A stretch of 64,000 bases of DNA from Methanobacteriota archaeon (GCA_020697715.1 JAEHCO010000001.1:2222-66221); one strand, 5' to 3'. Numbered from the stretch's first letter, positions 7,258-52,110 are shown. Numbers and translations: made by a program. Notes: a model not told the origin generated them from the letters alone.

Positions 7258-7369
7258 GGGCCCATGGCTTAGCCTGGTTATAGCGCCCGGCTGATATGGA
7301 ACAAACCTCAAAAAAGGGTTTGTTCTCTCCGATACCGGGATGTCTCGAGTTCAAATCTCGTTGGGCCCA
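7258..7369 (+). tRNA. tRNA-Ile (anticodon GAU) with 37-nt canonical intron (7297-7333) between positions 37/38
   Basis: GGGCCCA/TGGGCCC acceptor stem, D-arm GCTT…TAGC, anticodon stem CCCGG/CCGGG with loop CTGATA-[intron]-A, T-loop TTCAAAT, discriminator A; intron contains 9-bp helix GAACAAACC/GGTTTGTTC. Confidence 0.75.
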
Positions 7370-7524: not shown

Positions 7525-9117
7525 GTGAAACATATGACGGATTACATATTATCAAATTTACTCAAGAAGGCGGCAGAGCGATTCCCTGACAGGACTGCCA
7601 TATATTTTAAAGGATTAGAAATGACCTTTAGCGAACTGGACAAAAAAGCATCCAGGTTCGCCAGTGGTCTTTTGAATAATGGTATTAAAAAGGGAGATCG
7701 AGTTGGTCTATATATGCCGAATTATCCCGAATGGATAATCGCCTTTTTTGGAATTGCCAGGATGGGTGGTGTCGTGGTTCCAATGAACACCAGGTACAAG
7801 GCCAAGGAAGTTGATTACATAATGAACAACTCCGAGGCTACATCTCTCGTTATGACCTCGGATTTCATGAACTTGGATTATATCACAATACTTGATTCCC
7901 TCAGAGGTAAGATCCCCGAACTGAAGAAGGTCATCGTTCTTGGGGACAGGGTATTATCTGGAATGACTGCTTTCGATGAAATTCTGGAAGCAGGCTCGGA
8001 TCATGCCCATGACCAGGCTCTGGAAGATGCCATTTTGACCGCGAAGGAAGATGACGCGGTCTTCATCCTATACACCTCTGGAACGACCGGAGAGCCGAAG
8101 GGAGCTATGCTGACCAATCTGAACATCTCGAAAAACGCTGCCCAGATTGCTGAAGTTCTGGAGCAGAATGAGAATGACAATACTCTCATCGTAGTGCCTT
8201 TCTTCCACTGCTTTGGCTGTGTTATTGCGCTTTCGGCTTCAGTACATGCTGGATCTGGTGTGATTCCCATGCCCGCATTCGATGCAAAGGCATCACTGGA
8301 AGCCATGGAGAGATATAGGATCTCGATAGTTCATGGTGTTCCGACCATGTTCATCAACTACCTGGATGTGCTCAAGAACAAGGATTTCGATCTGGATGCG
8401 GTAAGGACCGGTGTGATGGCCGGAGCTCCCTGCCCCATAGAGGTGATGAAAGGGGCCATTGACAAGATGGGGGCCAATATCTCAATAGCCTACGGACTCA
8501 CGGAAGCATCACCCGTCATAACCATGACCAGGCTGGATGATTCCCTTGAGGACAGGGTGGAGACTGTTGGAAGAGCCTTGCCAGAACAGGAAATAAAAAT
8601 TATCGATGAGCATGGGAAGGAACTTCCCCTGGACAAGACCGGCGAGCTTGTCTCCCGGGGCTACAATATAATGAAAGGTTATTTCAAAATGCCAGAACAA
8701 ACAAGTGAGGCAATAGATGTTGACGGTTGGCTTCATTCTGGAGATCTGGCCACAATGGACGATAGAGGATATATCAGGATCGTGGGAAGAAAGAAGGAGA
8801 TGTACATATCCGGCGGCTTCAATGTATACCCCAGAGAGATCGAGGAATTCCTTTTCACCCTGCCTTACGTGGACAATGTCTCGGTCATCGGAGTCCCAGA
8901 CAAAAGACTGGGCGAGGCGGGGATGGCTGTCATCAAGTTGAAGAATGGCCACAATGCGACCAAAGAAGAACTTATCAGCCATTGCAAGGAAAATATAGCC
9001 AATTTCAAGGTTCCCAAATTCGTCTGGTTCGTCGATGAGTATCCAATGACCGAATCCGGCAAGATACAGAAGTTCAAGCTCAGGGATATGGCAGTAGAGG
9101 AATTCAAACTTGAATGA
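7525..9117 (+). CDS. Acyl-CoA synthetase / fatty-acid--CoA ligase (AMP-binding family)
   Basis: 530 aa; AMP-binding motif YTSGTTGEPKGAML and C-terminal GWLHSGDL…GRKKEM pattern. Confidence 0.85.
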   Translation: MKHMTDYILSNLLKKAAERFPDRTAIYFKGLEMTFSELDKKASRFASGLLNNGIKKGDRVGLYMPNYPEWIIAFFGIARMGGVVVPMNTRYKAKEVDYIMNNSEATSLVMTSDFMNLDYITILDSLRGKIPELKKVIVLGDRVLSGMTAFDEILEAGSDHAHDQALEDAILTAKEDDAVFILYTSGTTGEPKGAMLTNLNISKNAAQIAEVLEQNENDNTLIVVPFFHCFGCVIALSASVHAGSGVIPMPAFDAKASLEAMERYRISIVHGVPTMFINYLDVLKNKDFDLDAVRTGVMAGAPCPIEVMKGAIDKMGANISIAYGLTEASPVITMTRLDDSLEDRVETVGRALPEQEIKIIDEHGKELPLDKTGELVSRGYNIMKGYFKMPEQTSEAIDVDGWLHSGDLATMDDRGYIRIVGRKKEMYISGGFNVYPREIEEFLFTLPYVDNVSVIGVPDKRLGEAGMAVIKLKNGHNATKEELISHCKENIANFKVPKFVWFVDEYPMTESGKIQKFKLRDMAVEEFKLE

Positions 9118-9153
9118 TATAAAATTTCAAAGGAATGTTGATAGATCAGCAAT

Positions 9154-10239
9154 CTAATATCCAGCCTCAATATCCACAATATTGAGATAGTCTGTACTTC
9201 CGTCTCTCACCCTCTTGATATTCTCAATAACTTCATTCCACCTCTCCAGATCATCAAAGGGCGATGCACATCTGTGCGGTGACATCACGATATTGTCCAG
9301 CTCGTGAAAAGGATGTTCGAGCTGGTTATACGGATATTTACGGCCTTCTTCATCCTCTTCTGGCCGATAATCATACCACACGTCAATAGCTGCACCTGCT
9401 ATTGATCTGTCCTTAAGGGCTGTGAAAAGGGCCTTCTCGTCCACGATATCACCACGGCCCGTCTGTACAAGAATTCCATTTGATCCGAGTAGAGCCAACT
9501 CGGCCTTTCCGATCAGGCCGATGGTATCCTTCGTACTTGGCAAACTGATGAAAAGGATATCTATCTCTCTCAGGAATTCAGCAAGCTCGTCCGGACCATA
9601 TCGGACGAGTTGTGTTGGCCCATCATCATTGTACTTGCTCCAATCCTTACGCAGAGCGTGGAATTCCAATCGGAAATTTGATAGAAATAAATGCACATGC
9701 TGGCTGACATGCCCGAATCCGAGGAATCCGATCTTCCGATCCCTCAGTGGGATGGTCTTGGCCTTGTCATCCAGGAATCGCCAGTTTCCATCCACCATCC
9801 AATTATGGTGGATGATTATCTTGTTCATGAAAGATAGAAGAAGTCCCACTGCCCCAGTCGCTGTGAAATAAGCATTGCCATGTCCATTCGCCAATGGTAT
9901 ATCACGCCCCTCTTCCCTCAGTTCCAGGAAGAGGTCAGTTATGTGCTGCACACCCGCTCCAGGATTGATAAACAGCTTCATATTACTGGCTGCAAGAAGA
10001 AGCTCCTTGGATGGTCTCCAGCCAACTATCACATCTGCCTCACTAGCATATGGCAAATACATGTCCTCTGTCACTGTCTCGAAATTGTCATCCGAGCCAA
10101 CTGGACAAGGGTATATCATTTTCATATCTGGCAGGGCACCTTCCAGATATGACCTTAGCTCCGCGCGCACATTCCATATGAATAGAACCTTCATTGACCT
10201 AATATCGATGAAGAAGATAATATGTTTTGCCTCGCTCAC
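9154..10239 (-). CDS. D-isomer-specific 2-hydroxyacid dehydrogenase family protein
   Basis: 361 aa; NAD-binding GFLGFGHV and catalytic-domain pattern (GRGDIVDEKAL…AAIDV); start may be an internal Met. Confidence 0.7.
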   Translation of the reverse strand: MSEAKHIIFFIDIRSMKVLFIWNVRAELRSYLEGALPDMKMIYPCPVGSDDNFETVTEDMYLPYASEADVIVGWRPSKELLLAASNMKLFINPGAGVQHITDLFLELREEGRDIPLANGHGNAYFTATGAVGLLLSFMNKIIIHHNWMVDGNWRFLDDKAKTIPLRDRKIGFLGFGHVSQHVHLFLSNFRLEFHALRKDWSKYNDDGPTQLVRYGPDELAEFLREIDILFISLPSTKDTIGLIGKAELALLGSNGILVQTGRGDIVDEKALFTALKDRSIAGAAIDVWYDYRPEEDEEGRKYPYNQLEHPFHELDNIVMSPHRCASPFDDLERWNEVIENIKRVRDGSTDYLNIVDIEAGY

Positions 10240-36889: not shown

Positions 36890-38953
36890 ATGGAAATGGC
36901 AGTCTCAACAGCAGAGAAATTGGCGCAGGGTCAGAAAGAGATATCGATCGGAGAGTTCTTCCAGAGGAACAAGCAGATCCTGGGATTCGACTCATTGACC
37001 AGAGCTTTATTGACATCTGTGAAAGAGGGTGTGGACAATTCTCTGGATGCTTGCGAGGAAGCCGGAATTTTACCAGATATTTATGTCGAGATCGAGCAGA
37101 TATCCAAGATCGAGTTCAAGATCACGATGGAGGATAATGGACCCGGCATTGTCAAGCGACAGATCGCCAATGTCTTCGGCCGGCTTCTGTATGGTTCCAG
37201 GTTCCATGCGATCCGCCAATCCCGTGGCCAGCAGGGTATTGGGATTTCAGCCGTTGTAATGTACGGTCAGCTGACAACCGGAAAACCAACTTACGTTATT
37301 TCCAAGACCGAGAAGGAAGAGGCCGCCCACTGGATGAACCTCGTGCTCAATACGAAGAAGAATCGAGCGGACATTATCGAAGAAGATTTCAAGATCTGGG
37401 AGGGCAAGGAGCATGGAACCCGAATTGAAGTTTATGTCAATGCCCGATATACCGCGGGTAAGCAATCGGTTCTCGAATATCTGAAGGGAACTGCAATTGT
37501 CAACCCACATGCTCATATCACTTTCAAAGACCCGGCTGGGGAGATCCATGAGTTCAAGCGCGTGAGTGAGGATATACCACGCCAGACCAAGGAAGTCAAG
37601 CCACATCCGAAAGGAATAGAACTTGGCCATTTCCACAATATGGCCAAGGCATCCAGTCATCGCCGCATGGTCGCGTTTCTAACTGACGAGTTCTCCAGGG
37701 TCAGCCCCCGTGTTGCCAAAGAGATACTTGAGAAGGCCGGGGTTCGGGAGAAGAAAAGCCCCAAGACCCTGAGCATCCAGGAAGCGAAGGCAGTTGTCAA
37801 GGCCATCGATGCAGTGAAGATCATGGCTCCCCAGACCGATTGCCTGTCACCCATTGGCCCCACGCTTATCAAGAAGGGGCTGCGTAATGTTCTCAGTGGT
37901 CTTAAACCGAAGTTCTACGCGCCCCCTATCACTCGTGATCCGAGTGTTTACTCCGGCCACCCATTCCAAGTTGAGGTCGGTATGGTCTATGGAGGCCAGC
38001 TACCCAAGGACAAGCAAGTGGAGATACTCAGATTCGCCAATCGCGTGCCGTTGCTGTACCAGCAGGGTGGGGATGTGATCACCAATGCCATCTCCAAGGT
38101 GGACTGGCGGCGCTATGGACTTGAACAACGTGGCGGCAAGGGAATTCCCTATGGGCCAGCGGTAATCCTCGTGCATGTGGCTTCCACCCAGATACCTTTC
38201 ACCAGCGAGTCCAAAGACGCGATCGCCAATATCAAGATCATCGACAGCGAGATAGAGCGGGCGTTGAGATTATGCGCCCGTAAATTAAAATCACATCTCA
38301 GCAAGAGCGCGACCAAGGCCAAGAATCGAGAGAAGTTCAATATTGTTCAGATATTGCTTCCGGAGATCGCGAAGAAATCCGCCAATATCGTGGGCAAGCC
38401 AGTGCCCAAACTTGGCAAGACCATCACCAGCATCATGGACGTGATCTGGATAGATGATTCCATCGAGTATGACAAGAAGAGGCACAAGGTGCAGGTTGAC
38501 GTATATAATTACACATCGACCATCAAGAAAATGAAACTGTACGCGGAGCTTCCGATGGATGATATCGATATGAAGAAGTTCGATCCGGAGCCTGATGATA
38601 TAAATGGCGACAAGGTGCAGTGGAATATTAATAGGATAGCCAGTACCGACAGCTATCCTATTAAATTCGAATTAAAGGGTCTGGAAAAGGAAGAGTTCAA
38701 CGATGTTGAGGTTTATTTCAGTGATATGAACCCGGCCATCGTGATCGGAGCCGACATGCTGCCGGGCGACTGGAACCTGGATGATAAAAGGATCACGGCA
38801 GCGGCGCAGTCCTTGTTTGACTATGACGAGGCCGTGAGCAAGACCAAGAAACCGGACGATGATGATGATCTGGACTATGACGATGTGGCCGAGGTCCTGG
38901 ATGATGACAATGGCATTGGAGATAGTGCGGAGGTGATCTCAAATGACGAATAG
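36890..38953 (+). CDS. top6B: DNA topoisomerase VI subunit B
   Basis: 687 aa; GHKL/Bergerat ATPase motifs (EGVDNSLDA, GxxGxG-like loop), transducer domain, acidic C-terminus; overlaps top6A start by 11 nt. Confidence 0.9.
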
Positions 38954-40046
38954 TGACGACAGACACCAGAAAGCAGTGGAAGAGCTTTACAAGATAGCGG
39001 ACAGCGTGTACAAGCAGATCGATAAAGGCCAGATACCGAAGATGGAGATCCCGCTGAGGTCGAAGAAAAATATTCAATTCGCTCCCAGAAAAGGCGTATG
39101 GAAATACGGGAACATGAAAGGCGTACGCAGTGCGAAGAAGCTCAATGGGGCCTACATGCTCCTGCGAACGATGTACATGCTGGAGTTCATCCAGGACATG
39201 ATCAAGGACAGCAAATCATCCACCCTGAGAGAAATGTACTACATATCCGAGGGCTGGGACAAGGGCAAGTTCGGGTCCCAGGACGAGTCAAATAATCTGG
39301 CCGAGGACCTTGAGATAATTACAGCGTGTATGAGGGAGGACTTCAAGCTCCGCCCTGAAGAGGATGGAGCCAGAGTTATCGGCAATCTCACTTTGGAAGA
39401 GGTCAACAGAAAGGGAATTAAAAAGAGAATAAACTGCCAGGACGATGTCGGCGACAGTGGATACAGCATACCGTACAATGTGGAATCCGACAAGGTGAAC
39501 TTCATCGAGACCGATGCGAAGTTCGTCATGGCTGTCGAAACTGGTGGTATGTTCGACAGGTTGGTGGAGAATGGATTTGACGAGGATTCAAATGCAATTG
39601 TACTGCATCTCAAGGGACAGCCAGCGAGATCAACCAGGCGGATGATGAAGCGACTGAACGAGGAGATGAATCTACCAATTCTCGTATTCACGGATTGCGA
39701 TCCATGGTCCTTCAGAATTTATTCATCGATAGCATACGGGGCCATAAAGACAGCTCACATTTCAGAATACCTGGCCTGTCCAAGTGCGGTGTACATCGGC
39801 ATAACCACCGACGACATACTGACCTACGACCTGCCGACCGACAAATTAAACGCACAAGATGTCAAGGCACTCAAGTCCGAGCTAACAGACCCGAGGTTCA
39901 AGGATAGGTTCTGGCGCGATGAGATCGAGCTGATGTTAAAAATAAACAAAAAAGCAGAACAGCAAGCACTGGCCAAGTATGGTCTGAACTTCGTGACGGA
40001 TAAGTATCTGCCGGAGAAGTTGACGGAACTGGGTATGCTGGATTAA
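38943..40046 (+). CDS. top6A: DNA topoisomerase VI subunit A (Spo11-like)
   Basis: 367 aa; winged-helix region and Toprim segment ([17 protein letters not shown]) characteristic of Top6A/Spo11. Confidence 0.9.
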
Positions 40047-40493
40047 TTCATTATAAATGCACAAGAGCTCCGAGCAGGCCAATGGGGGTAGGGATTGGCC
40101 AGTGGAGGAGCTGGGTGGGGGGCCGACCCATAGGATGGGGTGGGCAATATTGCAATGTATCAGCAAGGCATCTTATATTCGAACATGCCCCGGGGCGAGT
40201 GTATTTTGTGTTAAATGCACAAAATAATAGTTCGAGAAGCAAAGCGATTCGAACTATGACGCAGACCCGGGGTACTATATTCTATATCTCAGTGAGTGAC
40301 AGTTGCGATGTGCCAGCAAAAAAATATCCTCCTCGCTCTCTCAATGCGAGGAGTCAAATAGAGCCCCGCCAGGAGTTCAACGATGGGCGGGGGCCTTATC
40401 CACACCCAGCTTAGCAAACTTATATCTCTGCAAGGGTGGGCATATTCAATGAATATTCATGGTGGGGGCGGTAAGCGGGCTAAATACCCGAAC
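40047..40493. ncRNA. Candidate structured non-coding RNA region (identity and strand unresolved)
   Basis: No protein-like ORF; G-rich and locally GC-enriched; several perfect hairpins (GGCCAAT-N10-ATTGGCC at 40077-40100, AGTTCGA-N13-TCGAACT, CTCCTCGC-N9-GCGAGGAG, GCCCCGCC…GGCGGGGGC). Confidence 0.3.
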
Positions 40494-41552
40494 CTAGAAA
40501 GCGTTGATAATCGTGTCCAGATCTTCCTTCGTCAATCCCGGATGCACCGGCAGGCTCAGCACCTCTTCCGCGGCCTTATCCGAGTTATCCAAGCCTTTGC
40601 TTCCATAATCAGATAGCAGGTCGAACTTGTGCAGGGATTTGGGGTAATACACACCTGATCCGACACCATTGTCCCTGAGCTTCTGGATGACATTGTCCCT
40701 ATCCTGCACTCTTATCGTGTACTGGTGGAAAACATGGCGGTAGCCATCTGGTACGTATGGAGTGACGATGCCTTTTGCTTTCAATCCTTCTGTTAAGTAA
40801 GCGGCATTTGCGATCCTGGCCTTGGTCATTTCTTCAAGTTTGGCAAGCTGGACAACGCCGATGGAGGCCGCGATGTCGGTCATTCTGAAATTGTATCCCA
40901 GGAATTCGTACACATAGCGGTCGGCCATGCCGTGGTTCCTGAACTTCTTGGCCAGGTCGTTTATCTCATCATCATTTGTCGTGATGATGCCGCCCTCGCC
41001 GGTTGTCATGTTCTTTGTTGGATAGAAGCTGAAACTGGCTGCATCTCCCATGGAGCCAGTGGTCTTCCCGTTCATGGCAGCTCCGTGAGCCTGGCATGAG
41101 TCTTCGAGAATCTTTAGACCATGCTGAACACCGAGCTTGTTTATCTTCTCCATGTCAGCTGACAGTCCGAAAATATGGACTGGCATGATGGCCTTTGTTC
41201 TTGGAGTTATCTTCTCAGCTATTGAATCAGGAGAGATATTGAAGGTCTTTGGATCTATATCCGCGAAGACCGGGGTCGCTCCCGTGAATAAGATGGATGT
41301 CGCACTGGCCACGAAGCTGAAAGGAGTTGTTATGACCTCATCGCCCTTGCCGATGCCCATTGATAATAGGGCGAGGTGAAGGGCCTGGGTTCCGTTTCCC
41401 ACCGCGATGCCGTGTTTCGCTCCGCAGTACTCGGCGAATTTTTCTTCCAATTCGGCGACTTTCTTTCCCTGAGCCAGCATACCGGATTGCATAACGGCTT
41501 TCACTGCCTCGAACTCGTCATCCCCTATCTGGGGGCTTGCTACGTTTATCAT
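40494..41552 (-). CDS. DegT/DnrJ/EryC1/StrS-family PLP-dependent sugar aminotransferase (WbpE-like)
   Basis: 352 aa; PLP-lysine region and family motifs (MPVHIFG, SFSFYPTKNMTTGEGG). Confidence 0.85.
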   Translation of the reverse strand: MINVASPQIGDDEFEAVKAVMQSGMLAQGKKVAELEEKFAEYCGAKHGIAVGNGTQALHLALLSMGIGKGDEVITTPFSFVASATSILFTGATPVFADIDPKTFNISPDSIAEKITPRTKAIMPVHIFGLSADMEKINKLGVQHGLKILEDSCQAHGAAMNGKTTGSMGDAASFSFYPTKNMTTGEGGIITTNDDEINDLAKKFRNHGMADRYVYEFLGYNFRMTDIAASIGVVQLAKLEEMTKARIANAAYLTEGLKAKGIVTPYVPDGYRHVFHQYTIRVQDRDNVIQKLRDNGVGSGVYYPKSLHKFDLLSDYGSKGLDNSDKAAEEVLSLPVHPGLTKEDLDTIINAF

Positions 41553-43187: not shown

Positions 43188-43337
43188 CTAAGATACAATA
43201 GATATAAAGTTTTACCTTTTATGACATAAGATGATAAATGAATAAAAATTATAAGTGGGCTGAGGCGGATCGAGAAAAATACGAAGCTTTTTTCGACATA
43301 GCCTCGGTTCACGATTAAAATCAAAAAGAAAACAAAG

Positions 43338-43479
43338 TGGGCCGAGGCGGATTTGAACCGCCGATCTTCGCCTTGCTGATTGCATGTCAGAAATTTCTGG
43401 CATGCAACTGTAAGGGCGACGTCAGATGGAGTGAAATGTAAGCGAACTTGCCATTTCAAAACCCCTAGACCACCGGCCC
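43338..43479 (-). tRNA. tRNA-Val (anticodon UAC) with two introns: about 34 nt in the D-loop and 35 nt at canonical 37/38
   Basis: Gene-strand 5' GGGCCGGTGGTCTAG…TGACGTCGCC-CTTACA-[GTTGCATGCCAGAAATTTCTGACATGCAATCAGCA]-AGGCGAAGATCGGCGGTTCAAATCCGCCTCGGCCC-A; exons give a canonical 73-nt tRNA; exact D-loop intron boundaries not resolved. Confidence 0.6.
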
Positions 43480-43591: not shown

Positions 43592-43724
43592 GCGAGGGTA
43601 GCTAAGCATGGTCAAATTGACCTGCAACCACTGACGAATCAACAGCGTTTGCAATCAAGGCTAACGGCGATAGACTCAAGATCTATTCCTTAGTGGTTCG
43701 CCGGTTCAAATCCGGTCCCTCGCA
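43592..43724 (+). tRNA. tRNA-Leu (anticodon CAA, type II) with about 48-nt non-canonical intron in the D-loop (about 43617-43664)
   Basis: GCGAGGG/CCCTCGC acceptor stem, D-loop AGCATGGTCAAA, intact anticodon arm ATAGA-CTCAAGA-TCTAT, 13-nt variable arm, T-arm GCCGG-TTCAAAT-CCGGT, discriminator A; 6-bp helix GGTCAA/TTGACC spans the exon-intron junction. Confidence 0.6.
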
Positions 43725-43876
43725 CCTTTTTATTTTTTGAGATAGCAGACTGTATTTTACACATACCCAGCAAGAATATGAAGCGAACGAGCAGGGTCAC
43801 CCGAGTTTTCTTTTGCAATGGAATACTTGTTCTTTTGGAGGGTGACCCAGCACAGTGAGCGTAAAAGAAAAGGCTT

Positions 43877-43900
43877 CCGTTTGAATCCGGTCCCTCGCAC
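43877..43900 (+). repeat. Direct repeat of the tRNA-Leu 3' end (20 of 20 nt identical: AATCCGGTCCCTCGCACCTT), att-like remnant
   Basis: Second copy 173 bp downstream of the tRNA; T-arm upstream of the repeat is degenerate, so not a functional tRNA. Confidence 0.5.
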
Positions 43901-43901
43901 C

Positions 43902-44612
43902 TTATTTTACCATATTTTGTATCATCTCAACAAGCCTATCGATGATGACCTCATTGGCTTTTTCTCCGAATTCCTTCGATGCAAGCTGGGGATCTCCCAT
44001 GACACCAGTTGGGAAGTATTTTTCAGGGTGCTTGAGTATCATAAAAGGTGGGAAATTTGGATGATTGGATTCGGCAGTTCCCTTTACCAGATCAGGGCGT
44101 ATGGCCATCACCCGCGAGGTCTCGATCATGCCCGCATGCCCGTCATTGACAGGTATCTCGATCTCGTTCATCGTGTACGCGATATCATAATCCGAAAGTA
44201 CCATCAGATTAATGTCCTCATCATGGGCTTCCAGAACAGTCTCACCTGCAAGCTTCAGCGCGGTCATGTGAGTTCGTCCAGCATGACCGGATAGGACCAC
44301 GATATTCCTGAATCCCATCCTGATCAACTCGGACAGGATGTCCTCCATCATCATCCGCAGAGTTTCGAATCTGAGTGTTATGGTTCCCGGGAAGTTCTTG
44401 GTGCTCGAACACTGTCCGTATTTCAAAATAGGTAACAGATAGGCTCCCAATCGCTCTGAAACTACTTCCGCAACATATTGGGGTTGCAAACAATCGGTGG
44501 ACAGGGGAAGATGTGGCCCATGCTCCTCTATCGCACCCAGTGGTAATATCGCGATAGAGCTCTCATTCACTTTTTCCCTTATCTCTTCAGTGGTCATTTC
44601 CTCCAATAACAT
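43902..44612 (-). CDS. Creatininase-family amidohydrolase (possibly ArfB-like formamide hydrolase)
   Basis: 236 aa; creatininase signature ILPLGAIEEHGPHLPLSTD and metal-binding His/Glu/Asp pattern. Confidence 0.8.
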   Translation of the reverse strand: MLLEEMTTEEIREKVNESSIAILPLGAIEEHGPHLPLSTDCLQPQYVAEVVSERLGAYLLPILKYGQCSSTKNFPGTITLRFETLRMMMEDILSELIRMGFRNIVVLSGHAGRTHMTALKLAGETVLEAHDEDINLMVLSDYDIAYTMNEIEIPVNDGHAGMIETSRVMAIRPDLVKGTAESNHPNFPPFMILKHPEKYFPTGVMGDPQLASKEFGEKANEVIIDRLVEMIQNMVK

Positions 44613-47502: not shown

Positions 47503-47600
47503 AGTCGGTTGCCGTAAGCCCATCTATGAAAATTTAGCTTAACTCGAAGCCATATAAGCTTCGAGAAATCGGGTTTTATGGCCTTGGATGAGAACATTCA
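47503..47600. other. Conserved intergenic element, copy 1 (17-mer AGTCGGTTGCCGTAAGC plus 8-bp-stem hairpin), candidate sRNA or terminator
   Basis: 17-mer at 47503-47519 identical to 52015-52031; hairpin CTCGAAGC-CATATAA-GCTTCGAG at 47543-47565; shared downstream TTATGGCC; between convergent genes. Confidence 0.3.
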
Positions 47601-47624: not shown

Positions 47625-49367
47625 TCACATTTCTTCAGGGGCCACAATACCCAGCGTGTTCAGCGCGTTCTGAAGTACCATCTTGGAGCATTTTACCAGA
47701 TTCAAACGCGCCTCCATGATATCCGCTTCCGCGCTGAGAACCGGGCAATCTCTGTAAAATTGATTGAAGAGGGATGCCAGCTCGTAGGTGTATGACGCCA
47801 CAAGGTGGGGTGTCCTGTCATCCGCGCATTTGATTATGAGTGAAGGGAACCTGGCCAGTGCTTTTATCAAGCTTATCTCGGACTCATGGATCAGAAGTCC
47901 GGGGTCGAAGTCATTCGGAGCATCCGTATTCCTCAGGATGCTGCTCGCTCTGGCATGGGAGTATTGAATGAAAGGCGCGCTATTTCCTTCAAAGTTCATG
48001 GCCTCCTCCCATTTGAAGGTCATTTGCTTTTCCGCCTGCACCCGGATGATATTGTAGCGTATGGCACCGACACCCACGGTCTCCGCTATGCCCAGCTTGA
48101 TCTCTTCAGGAAGCTCCGGTCTTTTCTTTTCAACTTCCGCCAGTGCCCTTGACACGGCCTCTTCGATGAGGTCATCCATGTAGACAACCTGGCCCTTGCG
48201 TGTGGACATCTTGCCCTCTGGCAAGGACACGAAGGCGTAGAATATGACCTCGACCTTTTTCTCATAATCCAGTACCTCATTGAGGGCTATGCTGACTGCC
48301 TCTGCTTTGAGTTTGTGATCCTCACCCAGCACATTGATCATATGGTCAAAATTATTATGTTTATCAATGTGGTAAGCTATGTCACGTGTTGTGTAAAGGG
48401 ACGTACCATCACTTCTTGTAAGGAACAGCTTGTTCTCCCTACCATGTATACCGAATTTCTCAAGATCCAGATACAGCGCGCCATCATCCTCGCCTGTCGA
48501 TTCACTGGCTCTCAGTTTTTCAACTACTTCCGCCACACTACCGTCCCTGACATATTTTGATTCCAGGTCGAATTTATCATAATGAATATCCAATCTCATC
48601 ATGGGAACCAACATCCCTTCCAAAATGTCCTCACAGTTCTTCTTCACCTTCTTGGATATGTCAGCCTCTCCATCTTCCTCATAAAGTGAAATGAGCTTAT
48701 TGATCTCATTATTGATATTGGGATCCTCAGCCATCAGCCTGTTAGCTTCCTGGTAGAATTTCACGAACTTGTGGTCCGCCCTGTCGCTCTCCACATCCAA
48801 TCCAGTGATATTCTCATGGCCCCAGGTGAGAATAACTAATTGTTTTCCCATGTCATCAACGTAAAAATGAACATCCAGATCATATCCTCTTTTTCTCAGG
48901 ATACGCGCCATCGTGTCCCCGATTATTGGATTGCGAGCCCGGCCTACATGAAGCGGGCCAGTTGGGTTCGCACTGGTATGTTCGAGGATAATCTTGGGAG
49001 CCTGATCCTCGAATTCGAAGGAACCATATCTATCCTTCATGCGAAATACCATTTCCATGGTTTTCCCGGCCAGTACTTTCCTATCAATGTAAAAATTAAC
49101 ATAAGGGCCCACATTCTCTATCTTTTCGAATAGAGGATTCGCGCCAATGCCAGCCACCAATTTCTCGGCCAGTTCCTGTGGTTTCATACCCAGTGGCCCA
49201 GCTAATGAGAAACAAACAAAGGCATAATCACTGTGCTGGTGTAATTTCAATGGTGGTAGGTAGAGCTCATTCCCACCCAGGGAATCCAAGGCCTTTCTCA
49301 TCTGGGCATTTGCTTCTTTATCGAATAAGGCCAGTGGGTTGAACTTTTCTAAATTATCGACATCCAT
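47625..49367 (-). CDS. argS: Arginine--tRNA ligase
   Basis: 580 aa; class I HIGH-type motif (ANPTGPLHVGRARN), ArgRS anticodon-binding C-terminal domain. Confidence 0.9.
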   Translation of the reverse strand: MDVDNLEKFNPLALFDKEANAQMRKALDSLGGNELYLPPLKLHQHSDYAFVCFSLAGPLGMKPQELAEKLVAGIGANPLFEKIENVGPYVNFYIDRKVLAGKTMEMVFRMKDRYGSFEFEDQAPKIILEHTSANPTGPLHVGRARNPIIGDTMARILRKRGYDLDVHFYVDDMGKQLVILTWGHENITGLDVESDRADHKFVKFYQEANRLMAEDPNINNEINKLISLYEEDGEADISKKVKKNCEDILEGMLVPMMRLDIHYDKFDLESKYVRDGSVAEVVEKLRASESTGEDDGALYLDLEKFGIHGRENKLFLTRSDGTSLYTTRDIAYHIDKHNNFDHMINVLGEDHKLKAEAVSIALNEVLDYEKKVEVIFYAFVSLPEGKMSTRKGQVVYMDDLIEEAVSRALAEVEKKRPELPEEIKLGIAETVGVGAIRYNIIRVQAEKQMTFKWEEAMNFEGNSAPFIQYSHARASSILRNTDAPNDFDPGLLIHESEISLIKALARFPSLIIKCADDRTPHLVASYTYELASLFNQFYRDCPVLSAEADIMEARLNLVKCSKMVLQNALNTLGIVAPEEM

Positions 49368-49369
49368 CT

Positions 49370-50593
49370 CTATCCCACCTTGTATCGGAGAATGGCCGCC
49401 AGACCATTGAAGGCCTTCATCAGCATTTCTCCTTCTTCCGAATCCATTGAGATCAATTCCACTGTCGTGCCATAGCTTTCGGCATTCACATATAGCCCTT
49501 CGATGACATCCGCTTCCTCATCGATGGCCACATCCCCCGAGCATTTTTTGCATTTTATCTGATTTGGATCATTGATCATCTCCTGACCAGATACGCCGCA
49601 ATCCTTACAGGTGTATTTCACCCGGTATCTGTCAACTCCCTCAGATACCATCAGGACATCCACTGCCCCGGCATTCAGGGTTTCATAGACCTCGACCTCG
49701 CCGTATGCGGTCAAGCCACCATCTGGCTTGCGAAGTTCGTCCATGAACCTTCGCATCAGCTCCTTTTCCTTGGATATGTCCATATCCTTCAGGGTCATTG
49801 TGGCATTTTCCAGAAGCTCTTTAAGGCCGTATTCGTCAGTATAGCCAGTATCAAATGTATTGAGGATCTTGCTATTCAATGCGTGATTGAGATAATTCTT
49901 ATCCGCGAAGAAATTCTTGGTGCTTCCCGGCCCACCAAGGATAATGCCCTTCAAGCCTTCGATCTCCAGAAATGCATCGTCTGCAATTCCAGCAACTTTC
50001 TTGTAATACTCATGGGCTGATATTTCAATTAATCTTTCAAATCTCTGAGCGGACTGGCCACCCTGTCGATGCTTGCCCATGATCCTTGATTGGATATTCT
50101 TCACCACTTGCAATCTCTTGCCGTTCAGGATACCGATGGTCGCCTCGCTCCTGTCGATCACTATGAGGCCCAGAGTTTCCTTTTCAATGAGCATGTCCTC
50201 CAGAGCGTCCAGGTAAAAATACGAATCACATCTGTAAAGGAATGTGGAGATCGGTTCCGGTGGCTCGATGATGAAACTTACTGCAACTGTCTGATCACCG
50301 CCAGCAGCCTTGTGCCCGACGAAGAAGGCCAGGCCATTTTCAGGCACTGCTTTATAATTCTTCAATCGGCCCATTATGGACTCGATGGCCCAGGACACGT
50401 TCTTCTTTGTTGTTCTGGACTTGATATTGGATGACTGGGAAGCCTCATTCCTGAGATATGATACGACATCGTGCACCATCTTCTTCTGCGGAATATGGAG
50501 TGATATCAGCTCGGTCGCTCTACCCTTGATGCTCTGGATCTCTCTGATCTGTCGCTTGAACTCGTATCTCGCTAATGCATCTGGCTTTGCCAT
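49370..50593 (-). CDS. prf1: Peptide chain release factor aRF1
   Basis: 407 aa; NIKS codon-recognition motif (SSNIKSRTTKK) and GGQ peptidyl-hydrolase motif (HRQGGQSAQRF); C-terminal zinc-ribbon-like CxxC pair. Confidence 0.9.
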   Translation of the reverse strand: MAKPDALARYEFKRQIREIQSIKGRATELISLHIPQKKMVHDVVSYLRNEASQSSNIKSRTTKKNVSWAIESIMGRLKNYKAVPENGLAFFVGHKAAGGDQTVAVSFIIEPPEPISTFLYRCDSYFYLDALEDMLIEKETLGLIVIDRSEATIGILNGKRLQVVKNIQSRIMGKHRQGGQSAQRFERLIEISAHEYYKKVAGIADDAFLEIEGLKGIILGGPGSTKNFFADKNYLNHALNSKILNTFDTGYTDEYGLKELLENATMTLKDMDISKEKELMRRFMDELRKPDGGLTAYGEVEVYETLNAGAVDVLMVSEGVDRYRVKYTCKDCGVSGQEMINDPNQIKCKKCSGDVAIDEEADVIEGLYVNAESYGTTVELISMDSEEGEMLMKAFNGLAAILRYKVG

Positions 50594-52014: not shown

Positions 52015-52110
52015 AGTCGGTTGCCGTAAGCTCATCATAAAACATCAACTGGATGCGGCGAACCAAACGCCGCACGTTCGAGCTTATGGCCCTAATGATC
52101 CACTAATAGA
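52015..52110. other. Conserved intergenic element, copy 2 (17-mer AGTCGGTTGCCGTAAGC plus 7-bp-stem hairpin)
   Basis: 17-mer at 52015-52031; hairpin TGCGGCG-AACCAAA-CGCCGCA at 52054-52074; then CGTTCGAGCTTATGGCC as in copy 1; between convergent genes. Confidence 0.3.

Follow-up and report, generated by a model that had tools for sequence, protein, structure and literature searches.

Bacterial repeats of the REP/BIME, Correia/CREE and RUP/BOX types are about 40-150 nt long, occur in several copies per genome, lie in the spacers after genes, form stable hairpins, show a patchy distribution among close relatives and can influence the 3′ ends of mRNAs. Here we describe a hairpin family with similar habits from an uncultured Thermoplasmata/Methanomassiliicoccales-like archaeon and its relatives. 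One form of it, which we call G-type, lies in a 447-nt interval (40047-40493) between the stop codons of two convergent genes, top6A and a DegT/DnrJ/EryC1-type aminotransferase gene; a sister form, T-type, lies beside a tRNA-Leu gene. Coordinates refer to the window, that is, the whole stretch of 64,000 nt that we analysed (GCA_020697715.1, JAEHCO010000001.1:2222-66221), unless a related locus is named. The family is undescribed and clade-specific, and its stems covary, being variable in sequence and yet complementary. It has no sequence similarity to the bacterial repeats; its invariant part is an internal loop and not a stem or a terminal tetranucleotide, and neither terminal inverted repeats nor a short fixed target duplication were found. 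The interval around it is a fast-changing, non-coding patchwork at an integration and defence-island hotspot.

Two kinds of recombination system offer further comparisons. Integron attC sites are likewise recombination-associated hairpins defined by structure, in which the stems vary, certain unpaired bases are conserved and the loop may have any length, and integron gene cassettes pile up in tandem at one site, as do T-type units in one relative (L410). However, the RYYYAAC/GTTRRRY boxes of attC are absent from the outer stems of all copies (judged by eye), no integron integrase lies nearby, most cassettes here are gene-less, and what recurs at the boundaries is the 3′ tail of the target, copied over 13-92 nt, instead of a 7-nt core. 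CIME-like remnants that keep only attP also restore the 3′ end of their target upon insertion and displace the original tail, which leaves diverged direct repeats; here these measure 86-92 nt at ~80% identity for top6A and ~22 nt for tRNA-Leu, and the larger versions carry cargo, in our case candidate defence systems. Unlike them, the minimal unit here comprises ~150-200 bp around a covarying hairpin, and no integrase was identified in the loci read. To our knowledge, neither top6A as a target nor this hairpin has been described in integrative elements.

A last comparison concerns RNA 3′ ends. The T-type form, and only this form, resembles the ENE/MALAT1 elements in having two U-rich loop tracts, each broken by a C, followed by an A-rich tract broken by a G, and its 5′ tract appears compatible with parallel Hoogsteen pairing. 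It differs in that no upper stem stands between the U-tracts, and the G-type form carries G-tracts where the T-type form has its U and A tracts. ENE-like elements also occur on transposable-element RNAs of plants and fungi. In the passages that a term search retrieved from a 2026 review (PMC13541005), archaea are mentioned only in other connections (riboswitches, H/ACA ribonucleoproteins), and no archaeal ENE-like triple helix appears.

Results

The G-type element consists of a hairpin with an asymmetric internal loop and a G-rich tail, arranged as follows.

40066-40112, plus strand: G-type hairpin, 79% identical without gaps to L001 8378-8457, with compensatory pairs and with further copies from covariance model R1 and a motif search
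40066-71 / 40107-12, plus strand: outer stem, AGCTCC/GGAGCT
40072-76 (5′ side, GAGCA) and 40101-07 (3′ side, AGTGGAG), plus strand: internal loop, with two pairs, C75-G102 and G74.T103
40077-83 / 40094-100, plus strand: inner stem, GGCCAAT/ATTGGCC
40084-93, plus strand: G-rich loop, GGGGGTAGGG
40113-40146, plus strand: G-tract tail, GGGTGGGGGG...GGGGTGGGC, a G-quadruplex-type motif that contains a small hairpin (40122-24 and 40126-29 with 40138-41 and 40143-45)

The stems of this hairpin change in related genomes while their pairing is kept. The inner stem GGCCAAU/AUUGGCC of the window reads GGACAUC/GAUGUCC in L001, a locus of the metagenome-assembled genome 'Methanobacteriota archaeon SF.bin11', so that three pairs are altered on both sides; when L003 is added, the outer stem AGCUCC/GGAGCU is replaced by CGCACC/GGUGCG, with two further both-side changes, and the consensus of the three sequences contains five covarying pairs. 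The invariant part, common to the G-type and T-type forms, is the asymmetric internal loop with CGAGCAGG on its 5′ side and CCAGYRSAG on its 3′ side. In the tail, GGGTGGGGGG and GGGGYGGGC are kept in the window, L001 and L003. The window and L001 elements fold alike, with the tail GGGUGGGGGG...GGGGUGGGC, and on the plus strand, where G.U pairs are present, their minimum free energies (MFE) are -37.8 (window) and -40.2 (L001) kcal/mol (z-scores -4.0 and -4.6), compared with -28.9 and -28.8 kcal/mol on the minus strand. We considered a kink-turn in the conserved internal loop and rejected it by eye, since the layout of the bulge and of the G.A pairs does not fit.

Membership of the family, as defined in this analysis, is given by CGAGCAGG and CCAGYRSAG flanking an inner stem, with a complementary outer stem around them; at 40065-40113 of the window, 7/7 inner and 5/6 outer positions are paired. 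Across all loci fetched the core motif has 274 matches, most of them due to chance and lying in the ~240 viral loci, with 4-7 of 13 flank pairs being the commonest count, and the core motif alone therefore does not imply a hairpin. Nine of ten archaeal copies have 10-13 of the 13 pairs. Model R1 and the motif search yielded further G-type copies at L003 1847-1935, L001 7642-7712 and L002 6640-6719, the latter two decayed. The G-type form recurs in three genomes. Four of the five copies begin 0-20 nt past the stop codon of a co-oriented open reading frame (ORF), the fifth (L003) standing in another context.

Within the tail, 40113-40144 carries on one strand at least four tracts of three or more Gs with short loops between them, and is by this sequence pattern a candidate G-quadruplex. 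It is one of only four such motifs on both strands of the 64 kb (G4Hunter score 1.6), and one of the three highest G4Hunter peaks of the window falls within the interval. The G-runs remarked upon in the initial annotation are hence borne out, and so is its count of at least five perfect inverted repeats: the interval holds five perfect hairpins, with stems of 7-9 bp and loops of 7-15 nt.

40077-83 / 40094-100: 7 bp
40202-10 / 40218-26: 9 bp
40227-35 / 40249-57: 9 bp
40329-36 / 40346-53: 8 bp
40364-70 / 40386-92: 7 bp

A 7-bp pair (40188-94 / 40266-72) surrounds two of these, and a 12-nt palindrome lies at 40449-60. Dinucleotide shuffles of the interval contain 0.38 +/- 0.61 such hairpins, and five were reached in none of 1000. 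Counted per 447 nt, the average of the window is 0.91, and five or more occur in only 4 of 1272 sliding windows, three of which overlap the interval. The MFE z-score of the entire interval is -3.9 on the plus strand and -3.5 on the minus strand. Perfect hairpins of at least 7 bp are also in excess at ~9151-9600 (five per 447 nt) and 49300-49650 (four), in or at the edge of predicted genes.

Comparison with relatives shows how little of the interval is shared. The top6A protein of the window is 98% identical to that of L001, 95% to L002 and 86% to L003, the nearest one in the metagenome collection being 84% identical, and the synteny of top6A with the aminotransferase gene is kept in only a handful of close relatives. 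None of the proteins of top6A, top6B, the aminotransferase gene and the gene next to it has an exact counterpart in the contig index searched. The two stop codons are 15 nt apart in L403/L404 (whose aminotransferase is 89% identical), 447 nt apart in the window and 2.3-3.4 kb apart in L001, L002/L408 and L003. In blastn searches, 40066-40145 alone matches L001 (79%, gap-free) and 40403-40480 alone matches L407 (76.5%). The central 250 bp, with three of the five hairpins, have no homologue among ~170 related loci, phages and plasmids; phage and plasmid collections searched with the interval gave no match, and five pattern scans of IMG/VR returned only chance matches in coding DNA. Sequence conservation in related genomes is found for the two edges and not for the centre. 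The proposal of a structured RNA gene survives in part: the structure exceeds chance and the left ~85 nt are kept with compensatory changes, but the interval is not one RNA gene and is absent from a relative with the 15-nt spacer. We conclude that it is a mosaic, which belongs to no known RNA family.

The insertions found after top6A in relatives carry genes. L001 5128-6870 encodes a HEC-01-like AAA ATPase together with a partner protein of 206 aa, and L002 4787-6629 (identical to L408 7179-9021) encodes PDC-M11 A and B (E = 1e-150 and 1e-50); both are candidate anti-phage systems, which makes the end of the topoisomerase VI (top6) operon a hotspot for defence islands among these archaea. A diverged second copy of the last 86-92 nt of top6A lies downstream of the gene in L002 (4553-4638), L003 (5745-5836) and L082 (6189-6275), at ~80% identity, and a 13-nt copy of the tail is found in L001 at about 7803-7815. 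Three of the tail copies begin at one position (GAGCAGCAGGC). By their sequence, such copies are the signature expected of elements that insert at the 3′ end of top6A and themselves supply a copy of its tail, and top6A appears to be an integration target. A literature search surfaced no paper on top6A in this role, and we know of no such description. Homology of the tail copies runs past the identical core, with mismatches, which would fit attP-type homology rather than a target-site duplication. Diversity-generating retroelements or another form of retrotransposition were rejected as their origin, the differences not being A-specific, a reverse transcriptase being absent and the homology extending beyond the identical core.

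The window itself is a nearly 'empty' allele that has no cargo genes and no tail duplicate and retains 447 bp of non-coding sequence. No second top6A tail is found in its interval, where the best local alignment scores 10, a value reached by 13.6% of shuffles. A miniature inverted-repeat transposable element (MITE) is not clearly indicated: the 18-nt inverted repeat (imperfect, 78%; 40046-63 / 40437-54) and the 9-nt direct repeat GGGTGGGCA (40138 and 40434) define no single consistent element, and no second copy was found in the window or the loci. A replication origin or terminus was rejected, for the GC skew only tracks gene orientation and the single sequence resembling an origin recognition box, CCAGTGGAG, is not kept in L001.

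The T-type form connects the hairpin family to integration more closely. It has the internal loop of the G-type form, a 9-bp stem, GGNUNACCC/GGGUNANCC, a U-rich loop of 32-37 nt and then an A-rich tail. In the window it is represented as follows.

43781-43874, plus strand: T-type copy, which shares the conserved internal loop and has GGGTCACCC/GGGTGACCC as inner stem, two U-rich tracts in its loop and AAAAGAAAA as A-rich tail

Besides the window copy, T-type copies are present at L001 7712, L002 4452, L010 1873 and L082 6094, and model R2 adds L410 2568 and 2745, L081 10941, L005 4241 and a partial copy in L407. Among nine distinct copies, 87% of cells are paired, compared with 68% in shuffles (0/500 reaching the observed value), and 12 of 18 pairs are changed on both sides. 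Slid controls give 23-44%. The alignment was fitted to model R2, and this test consequently leans toward the model. The tandem G.A pairs of the T-type outer stem become U-A pairs in L002 and L082. In addition, each of the five copies tested has a U-tract in its loop that matches the A-rich tail by perfect complementarity over 9-12 nt (p<=0.0055 each against shuffled tails), with the interrupting C of the U-tract facing a G of the tail. In four of these copies the 3′ U-tract is the one that pairs; the window copy has its best run in the 5′ tract and a run of 7 nt in the 3′ tract. A parallel reading of the 5′ U-tract is favoured solely in L010 (UUUCUUUCC // AAAGAAAGG, 9 versus 7). As judged from its sequence, the T-type loop and tail have the layout of an ENE/MALAT1-type triple helix.

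T-type copies lie 0-10 nt before a copy of the 3′ tail of their target in the window, L001, L002, L082 and L410. The element stands between top6A and the displaced tail in L002 and L082, and at the right end of the island in L001. In the window it belongs to a gene-less insert of ~155 bp (43728-43902) that runs from a tRNA-Leu gene (~43592-43726) to a 22-nt copy of the tRNA tail (43881-43902) and is composed of a T5AT6 run, the T-type hairpin and the A-rich tail. At the tRNA-Leu locus of the L001 genome (L410 2540-2925) there are two tandem units (tRNA, unit 2, tail, unit 1, tail) instead of one. Because T-type copies adjoin target tails and occur as tandem or single units, they resemble gene-less cassettes of ~150-200 bp that would integrate site-specifically, and the presence of two such units in the L001 genome suggests a recently mobile miniature integrative cassette.

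The tRNA genes of this region have features of their own. The tRNA-like genes at 43592-43726 (plus strand) and ~43330-43478 (minus strand) have long or non-canonical introns and were both missed by ARAGORN, which reported no tRNA in the window; the former, tRNA-Leu(CAA)-like, scores 19 bits in Rfam, below the gathering threshold. The 3′ end of the tRNA on the minus strand seems to be partially repeated at about 43254-43275, which may be another att-type remnant.

These observations raise the question of whether the hairpins act as DNA. They could be remnants of recombination sites or mobile cassettes, folded as single-stranded or cruciform DNA, much like integron attC sites or REP elements, and recognised by a recombinase encoded elsewhere, any RNA being incidental. 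The position of T-type copies directly before target tails speaks for this, as do the presence/absence polymorphism of one versus two tandem units (window versus L410), an architecture like that of sites recognised by structure, in which the stems vary, the internal loop does not and the length of the terminal loop is free, the T-type internal loop of the G-type form and its place at the edge of the hotspot, the absence of the element from L403/L404, and the central perfect palindromes, which are identical on both strands. However, no recombinase gene was seen in any locus read, the window G-type element has no adjacent duplicate of the top6A tail, and in L001 and L002 the G-type copies are not part of the inserted islands but follow the displaced tails on their right. 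Furthermore, the loop-tail complementarity and doubled U-tracts of the T-type form would be unexpected for a recombination site. We consider this explanation, the chief rival to the one that we prefer, possible but on balance unlikely.

The centre of the interval is occupied by a second structure, which can be drawn on either strand.

40183-40277, both strands: three-way junction with closing helix 40188-94 / 40266-72 and hairpins 40202-26 and 40227-57

Its closing helix consists of two CCCGGGG palindromes and encloses two abutting perfect 9-bp A/T-rich hairpins, and the structure is identical on both strands, with an MFE of -41.5 kcal/mol (z -7.2) on the plus strand and -33.7 kcal/mol (z -5.1) on the minus strand. 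The loci and collections searched contain no homologue of it; it is missing from L001, and in L002 the similarity is limited to ~40 nt on its left side. It is most likely lineage-specific inserted DNA, which may serve as a roadblock between converging transcripts. The extreme stability of its fold could instead mark it as a new, independent small RNA gene, and the interval might hold one or several such genes, each with its own promoter. TATA-like boxes that fit the local promoter consensus (C/T)TTATAT(A/C/T), derived from a comparison of promoters in the window, are present at 40172-79, 40281-88 and 40419-26, and the GC content of the interval exceeds that of other spacers. This explanation nevertheless seems improbable to us: the centre has no homologue in the ~170 related loci and is missing from the closest relative, L001; the only comparable TATA-like box (40419-26) is not kept in L407; start sites predicted from the boxes land within hairpins; no plus-strand T-run is available to end an RNA; and the closing 'helix' is made of two self-complementary CCCGGG copies, which pair by construction.

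On the right, the interval is best described from the minus strand, on which the aminotransferase gene is encoded.

40318-40392, minus strand: terminator-like module with hairpin GCCCCCGCC...GGCGGGGC (40364-92), hairpin CTCCTCGC...GCGAGGAG (40329-53), GATA and T7 (40318-24, A7 on the plus strand)
40400-40493, minus strand: proximal 3′ flank of the aminotransferase gene, with the kept blocks CACCCAGCTTARCAAACT, TCTCTGCAAGGGTGGG, CATGGTKGGGG and GGTARGCGGGC

The T7 run lies 170 nt past the aminotransferase stop codon, as in archaeal oligo-T terminators, which we take as at least five Ts on the coding strand shortly after a gene. Archaeal termination needs no GC hairpins before the T-run. In the 64 kb, the minus strand has only two T-runs of at least seven, and the other sits 24 nt past the stop codon of a minus-strand gene; T6 runs follow both tRNA genes, and other T6-T7 runs of the window lie just past genes and tRNAs. 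A scan of the interval for bacterial-type promoters and terminators returned no terminator, because the hairpin loop of 9 nt exceeds the limit of 8 set by the tool. The ~95 nt after the aminotransferase stop codon are kept in blocks with L407 (CACCCAGCUUARCAAACU, UCUCUGCAAGGGUGGG and others), and 40400-40493 is 76.5% identical to that locus over 81 nt, close to the 79.9% of the adjacent coding sequence. Neither the 12-nt palindrome nor the TATA-like box of this flank is kept in L407, and an internal promoter at 40419-26 was rejected on account of the latter. In connection with the G-tract tail of the G-type element, it is worth noting that GGGTGGGC adjoins the aminotransferase stop codon in L001, L409 and L411. 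This part of the interval is probably the 3′ untranslated region (UTR) and terminator of the aminotransferase operon.

The interval is non-coding. The initial annotation saw no protein-like ORF in it, which is right in substance and not to the letter: an ORF of 110 codons spans 40082-40414, but its codon usage is non-coding and it has no true homologue. A small protein, encoded either there or by a Cys-containing ORF of 56 codons (40057-40227), is nonetheless conceivable, since an ORF of 110 codons arises in only 1.9% of shuffles and the ATGs at 40082 and 40451 are preceded by TATA-like boxes at a distance of ~27 nt, which would fit leaderless mRNAs. Against it, the codon usage of the six ORFs scored falls below 100% of real-gene chunks of the window, and the GC content at second codon positions is 0.49-0.57 in the five ORFs wholly inside the interval (0.53 in the 110-codon ORF), compared with 0.35 in genes. 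None of the six has a Pfam match; the 110-aa product has only two spurious matches among 1.84 billion representative proteins, both to repetitive proteins over several weak stretches; and the ATG and reading frame of the ORF are lost in L001. A protein product is accordingly very improbable.

Known RNA families can be dealt with in the same way. The interval had been thought consistent with signal recognition particle (SRP) RNA, RNase P RNA or a new small RNA. A scan of the entire window with the 4227 families of Rfam 15 (cmscan, gathering scores) has a tRNA at 7258-7369 as its sole match; the intron of this tRNA gene is 38 nt long, and a T6 run lies after the gene at 7376-81. With permissive filters and E<=10, positions 39900-40650 gave only a chance match of 25 nt and 16 bits to the mir-7386 microRNA model, and five related loci gave zero Rfam matches. 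SRP RNA and RNase P RNA are hence rejected, with no Rfam match to either on either strand at the gathering score or at E<=10. A C/D box small RNA, sought by a regular expression with one mismatch as a C box (RUGAUGA) near the 5′ end and a D box (CUGA) near the 3′ end, 25-70 nt apart, is rejected too: the plus strand has none and the minus strand one weak C-like box without a D partner. A divergent member of any such family (SRP RNA, RNase P RNA, C/D or H/ACA small RNA, riboswitch) has nothing in its favour beyond the general look of the sequence, and we give it next to no chance in view of the Rfam results and the missing C/D box pair.

The remaining features of the interval and its surroundings are its two neighbours, whose stop codons border it, and two linkers.

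38943-40046, plus strand: top6A, left neighbour
40494-41552, minus strand: DegT/DnrJ/EryC1-type aminotransferase gene, right neighbour
40047-40065, plus strand: A/T-rich linker ATTCATTATAAATGCACAAG after the top6A stop codon, partially aligned upstream of the L001 and L002 copies
40147-40187, no strand assigned: linker with faint homology to L002 (GCAATGTATCAGCA, 12/14 in a global alignment) and the TATA-like box CTTATATT at 40172-79

The GC content of the interval is 0.50, the window being at 0.457, most other intergenic spacers at 0.29-0.45 and one other convergent spacer at 0.48. The interval is thus GC-enriched relative to the other spacers (0.29-0.48), as the initial annotation had it, though not relative to genes.

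Two observations concern other parts of the window. A 22-nt motif, AGTCGGTTGCCGTAAGCYCATC, occurs once in each of two other convergent spacers (47503-47524 and 52015-52036), on the same strand, where none is expected by chance; each copy is followed by a hairpin and then by GCTTATGGC or a similar sequence able to pair back to GCCGTAAGC, and the motif may represent another small structured family at gene ends. Between 28649 and 35610, two huge minus-strand ORFs (1236 and 1064 aa) have 78-84-nt and 42-nt periodic repeats common to both and look like paralogous repetitive surface proteins.

Discussion

Based on the above data, we lean towards an explanation in which the two conserved edges of the interval act in the messages of their own genes and the rest is insertion debris. 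We hold it tentatively, with a confidence that stops a little short of even, and are surer of the mosaic hotspot with a family member in it than of the RNA mechanism. The G-type hairpin would be transcribed and form the end of the top6B-top6A mRNA, given that only 19 nt and no T-run separate it from the stop codon: the linker 40047-40065 has none in our listing of T-runs, and top6BA transcripts would consequently read into the element. In the sense RNA, the hairpin and the predicted G-quadruplex of the tail, possibly together with the loop, could then define or protect the mRNA 3′ end. On the other strand, the 3′ UTR of the aminotransferase operon would end in the two GC hairpins and the T7 terminator. 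The central junction would be inserted DNA whose effect, if any, is to stop read-through from either side.

Several points weigh against this proposal. Transcription, the strand of action and a 3′-end function are what we infer from sequence. The plus strand of the interval has no oligo-T terminator at which a top6BA transcript could end, its longest T-run being T4. The covariation rests on few sequences, because there are only three full-length G-type copies. L403/L404 have none of the interval sequence, so nothing in it is essential for top6A or for the aminotransferase gene. The tie of the T-type form to duplicated target tails points to a role in DNA recombination that the G-type form might share. 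In L003 (1700-1935) the G-type copy lies upstream of top6B in a divergent spacer, preceded by further GC hairpins, and in L010 (1873-1963) a T-type copy is likewise upstream of top6B in a divergent spacer; neither stands after a gene, and the family therefore flanks top6BA on either side in different genomes. Finally, the central junction is left unexplained.

A bolder version would unite the two forms as one RNA device: a hairpin recognised by a protein, whose loop locks its own 3′ tail and thereby caps the 3′ end of a transcript, the lock being a U.A-U/C+.G-C triple helix in the T-type form and a G-quadruplex in the G-type form. Such a device would spread on gene-less cassettes of ~150-200 bp, by site-specific integration at the 3′ ends of the top6A and tRNA-Leu genes, and would also ride at the end of larger defence islands. 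T5-T7 runs, as in the T-type loop, should terminate archaeal RNA polymerase, which counts against an RNA role. We regard the unified device as a doubtful prospect; if it were true, an ENE-like 3′-end triple helix would be known for the first time from archaea, along with a novel type of miniature integrative element.

The locus offers a way to follow the family further. The models R1 and R2 allow it to be mapped across whole genomes, and the presence/absence polymorphisms (15 nt, 447 nt or 2-3 kb between the stop codons; one versus two tRNA-linked units) are natural controls for function. If the interval is insertion debris only, an odd GC-rich spacer is explained and can be dropped from the candidate housekeeping RNAs. 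The end of the top6 operon is identified as a hotspot that exchanges candidate defence systems. Should the family prove real and functional, it would constitute a new class of small structured elements for this uncultured archaeal clade, one in which the folding of RNA or DNA, through a conserved internal loop and loop-tail pairs prone to form a G-quadruplex or triplex, would be tied to site-specific integration at gene 3′ ends.

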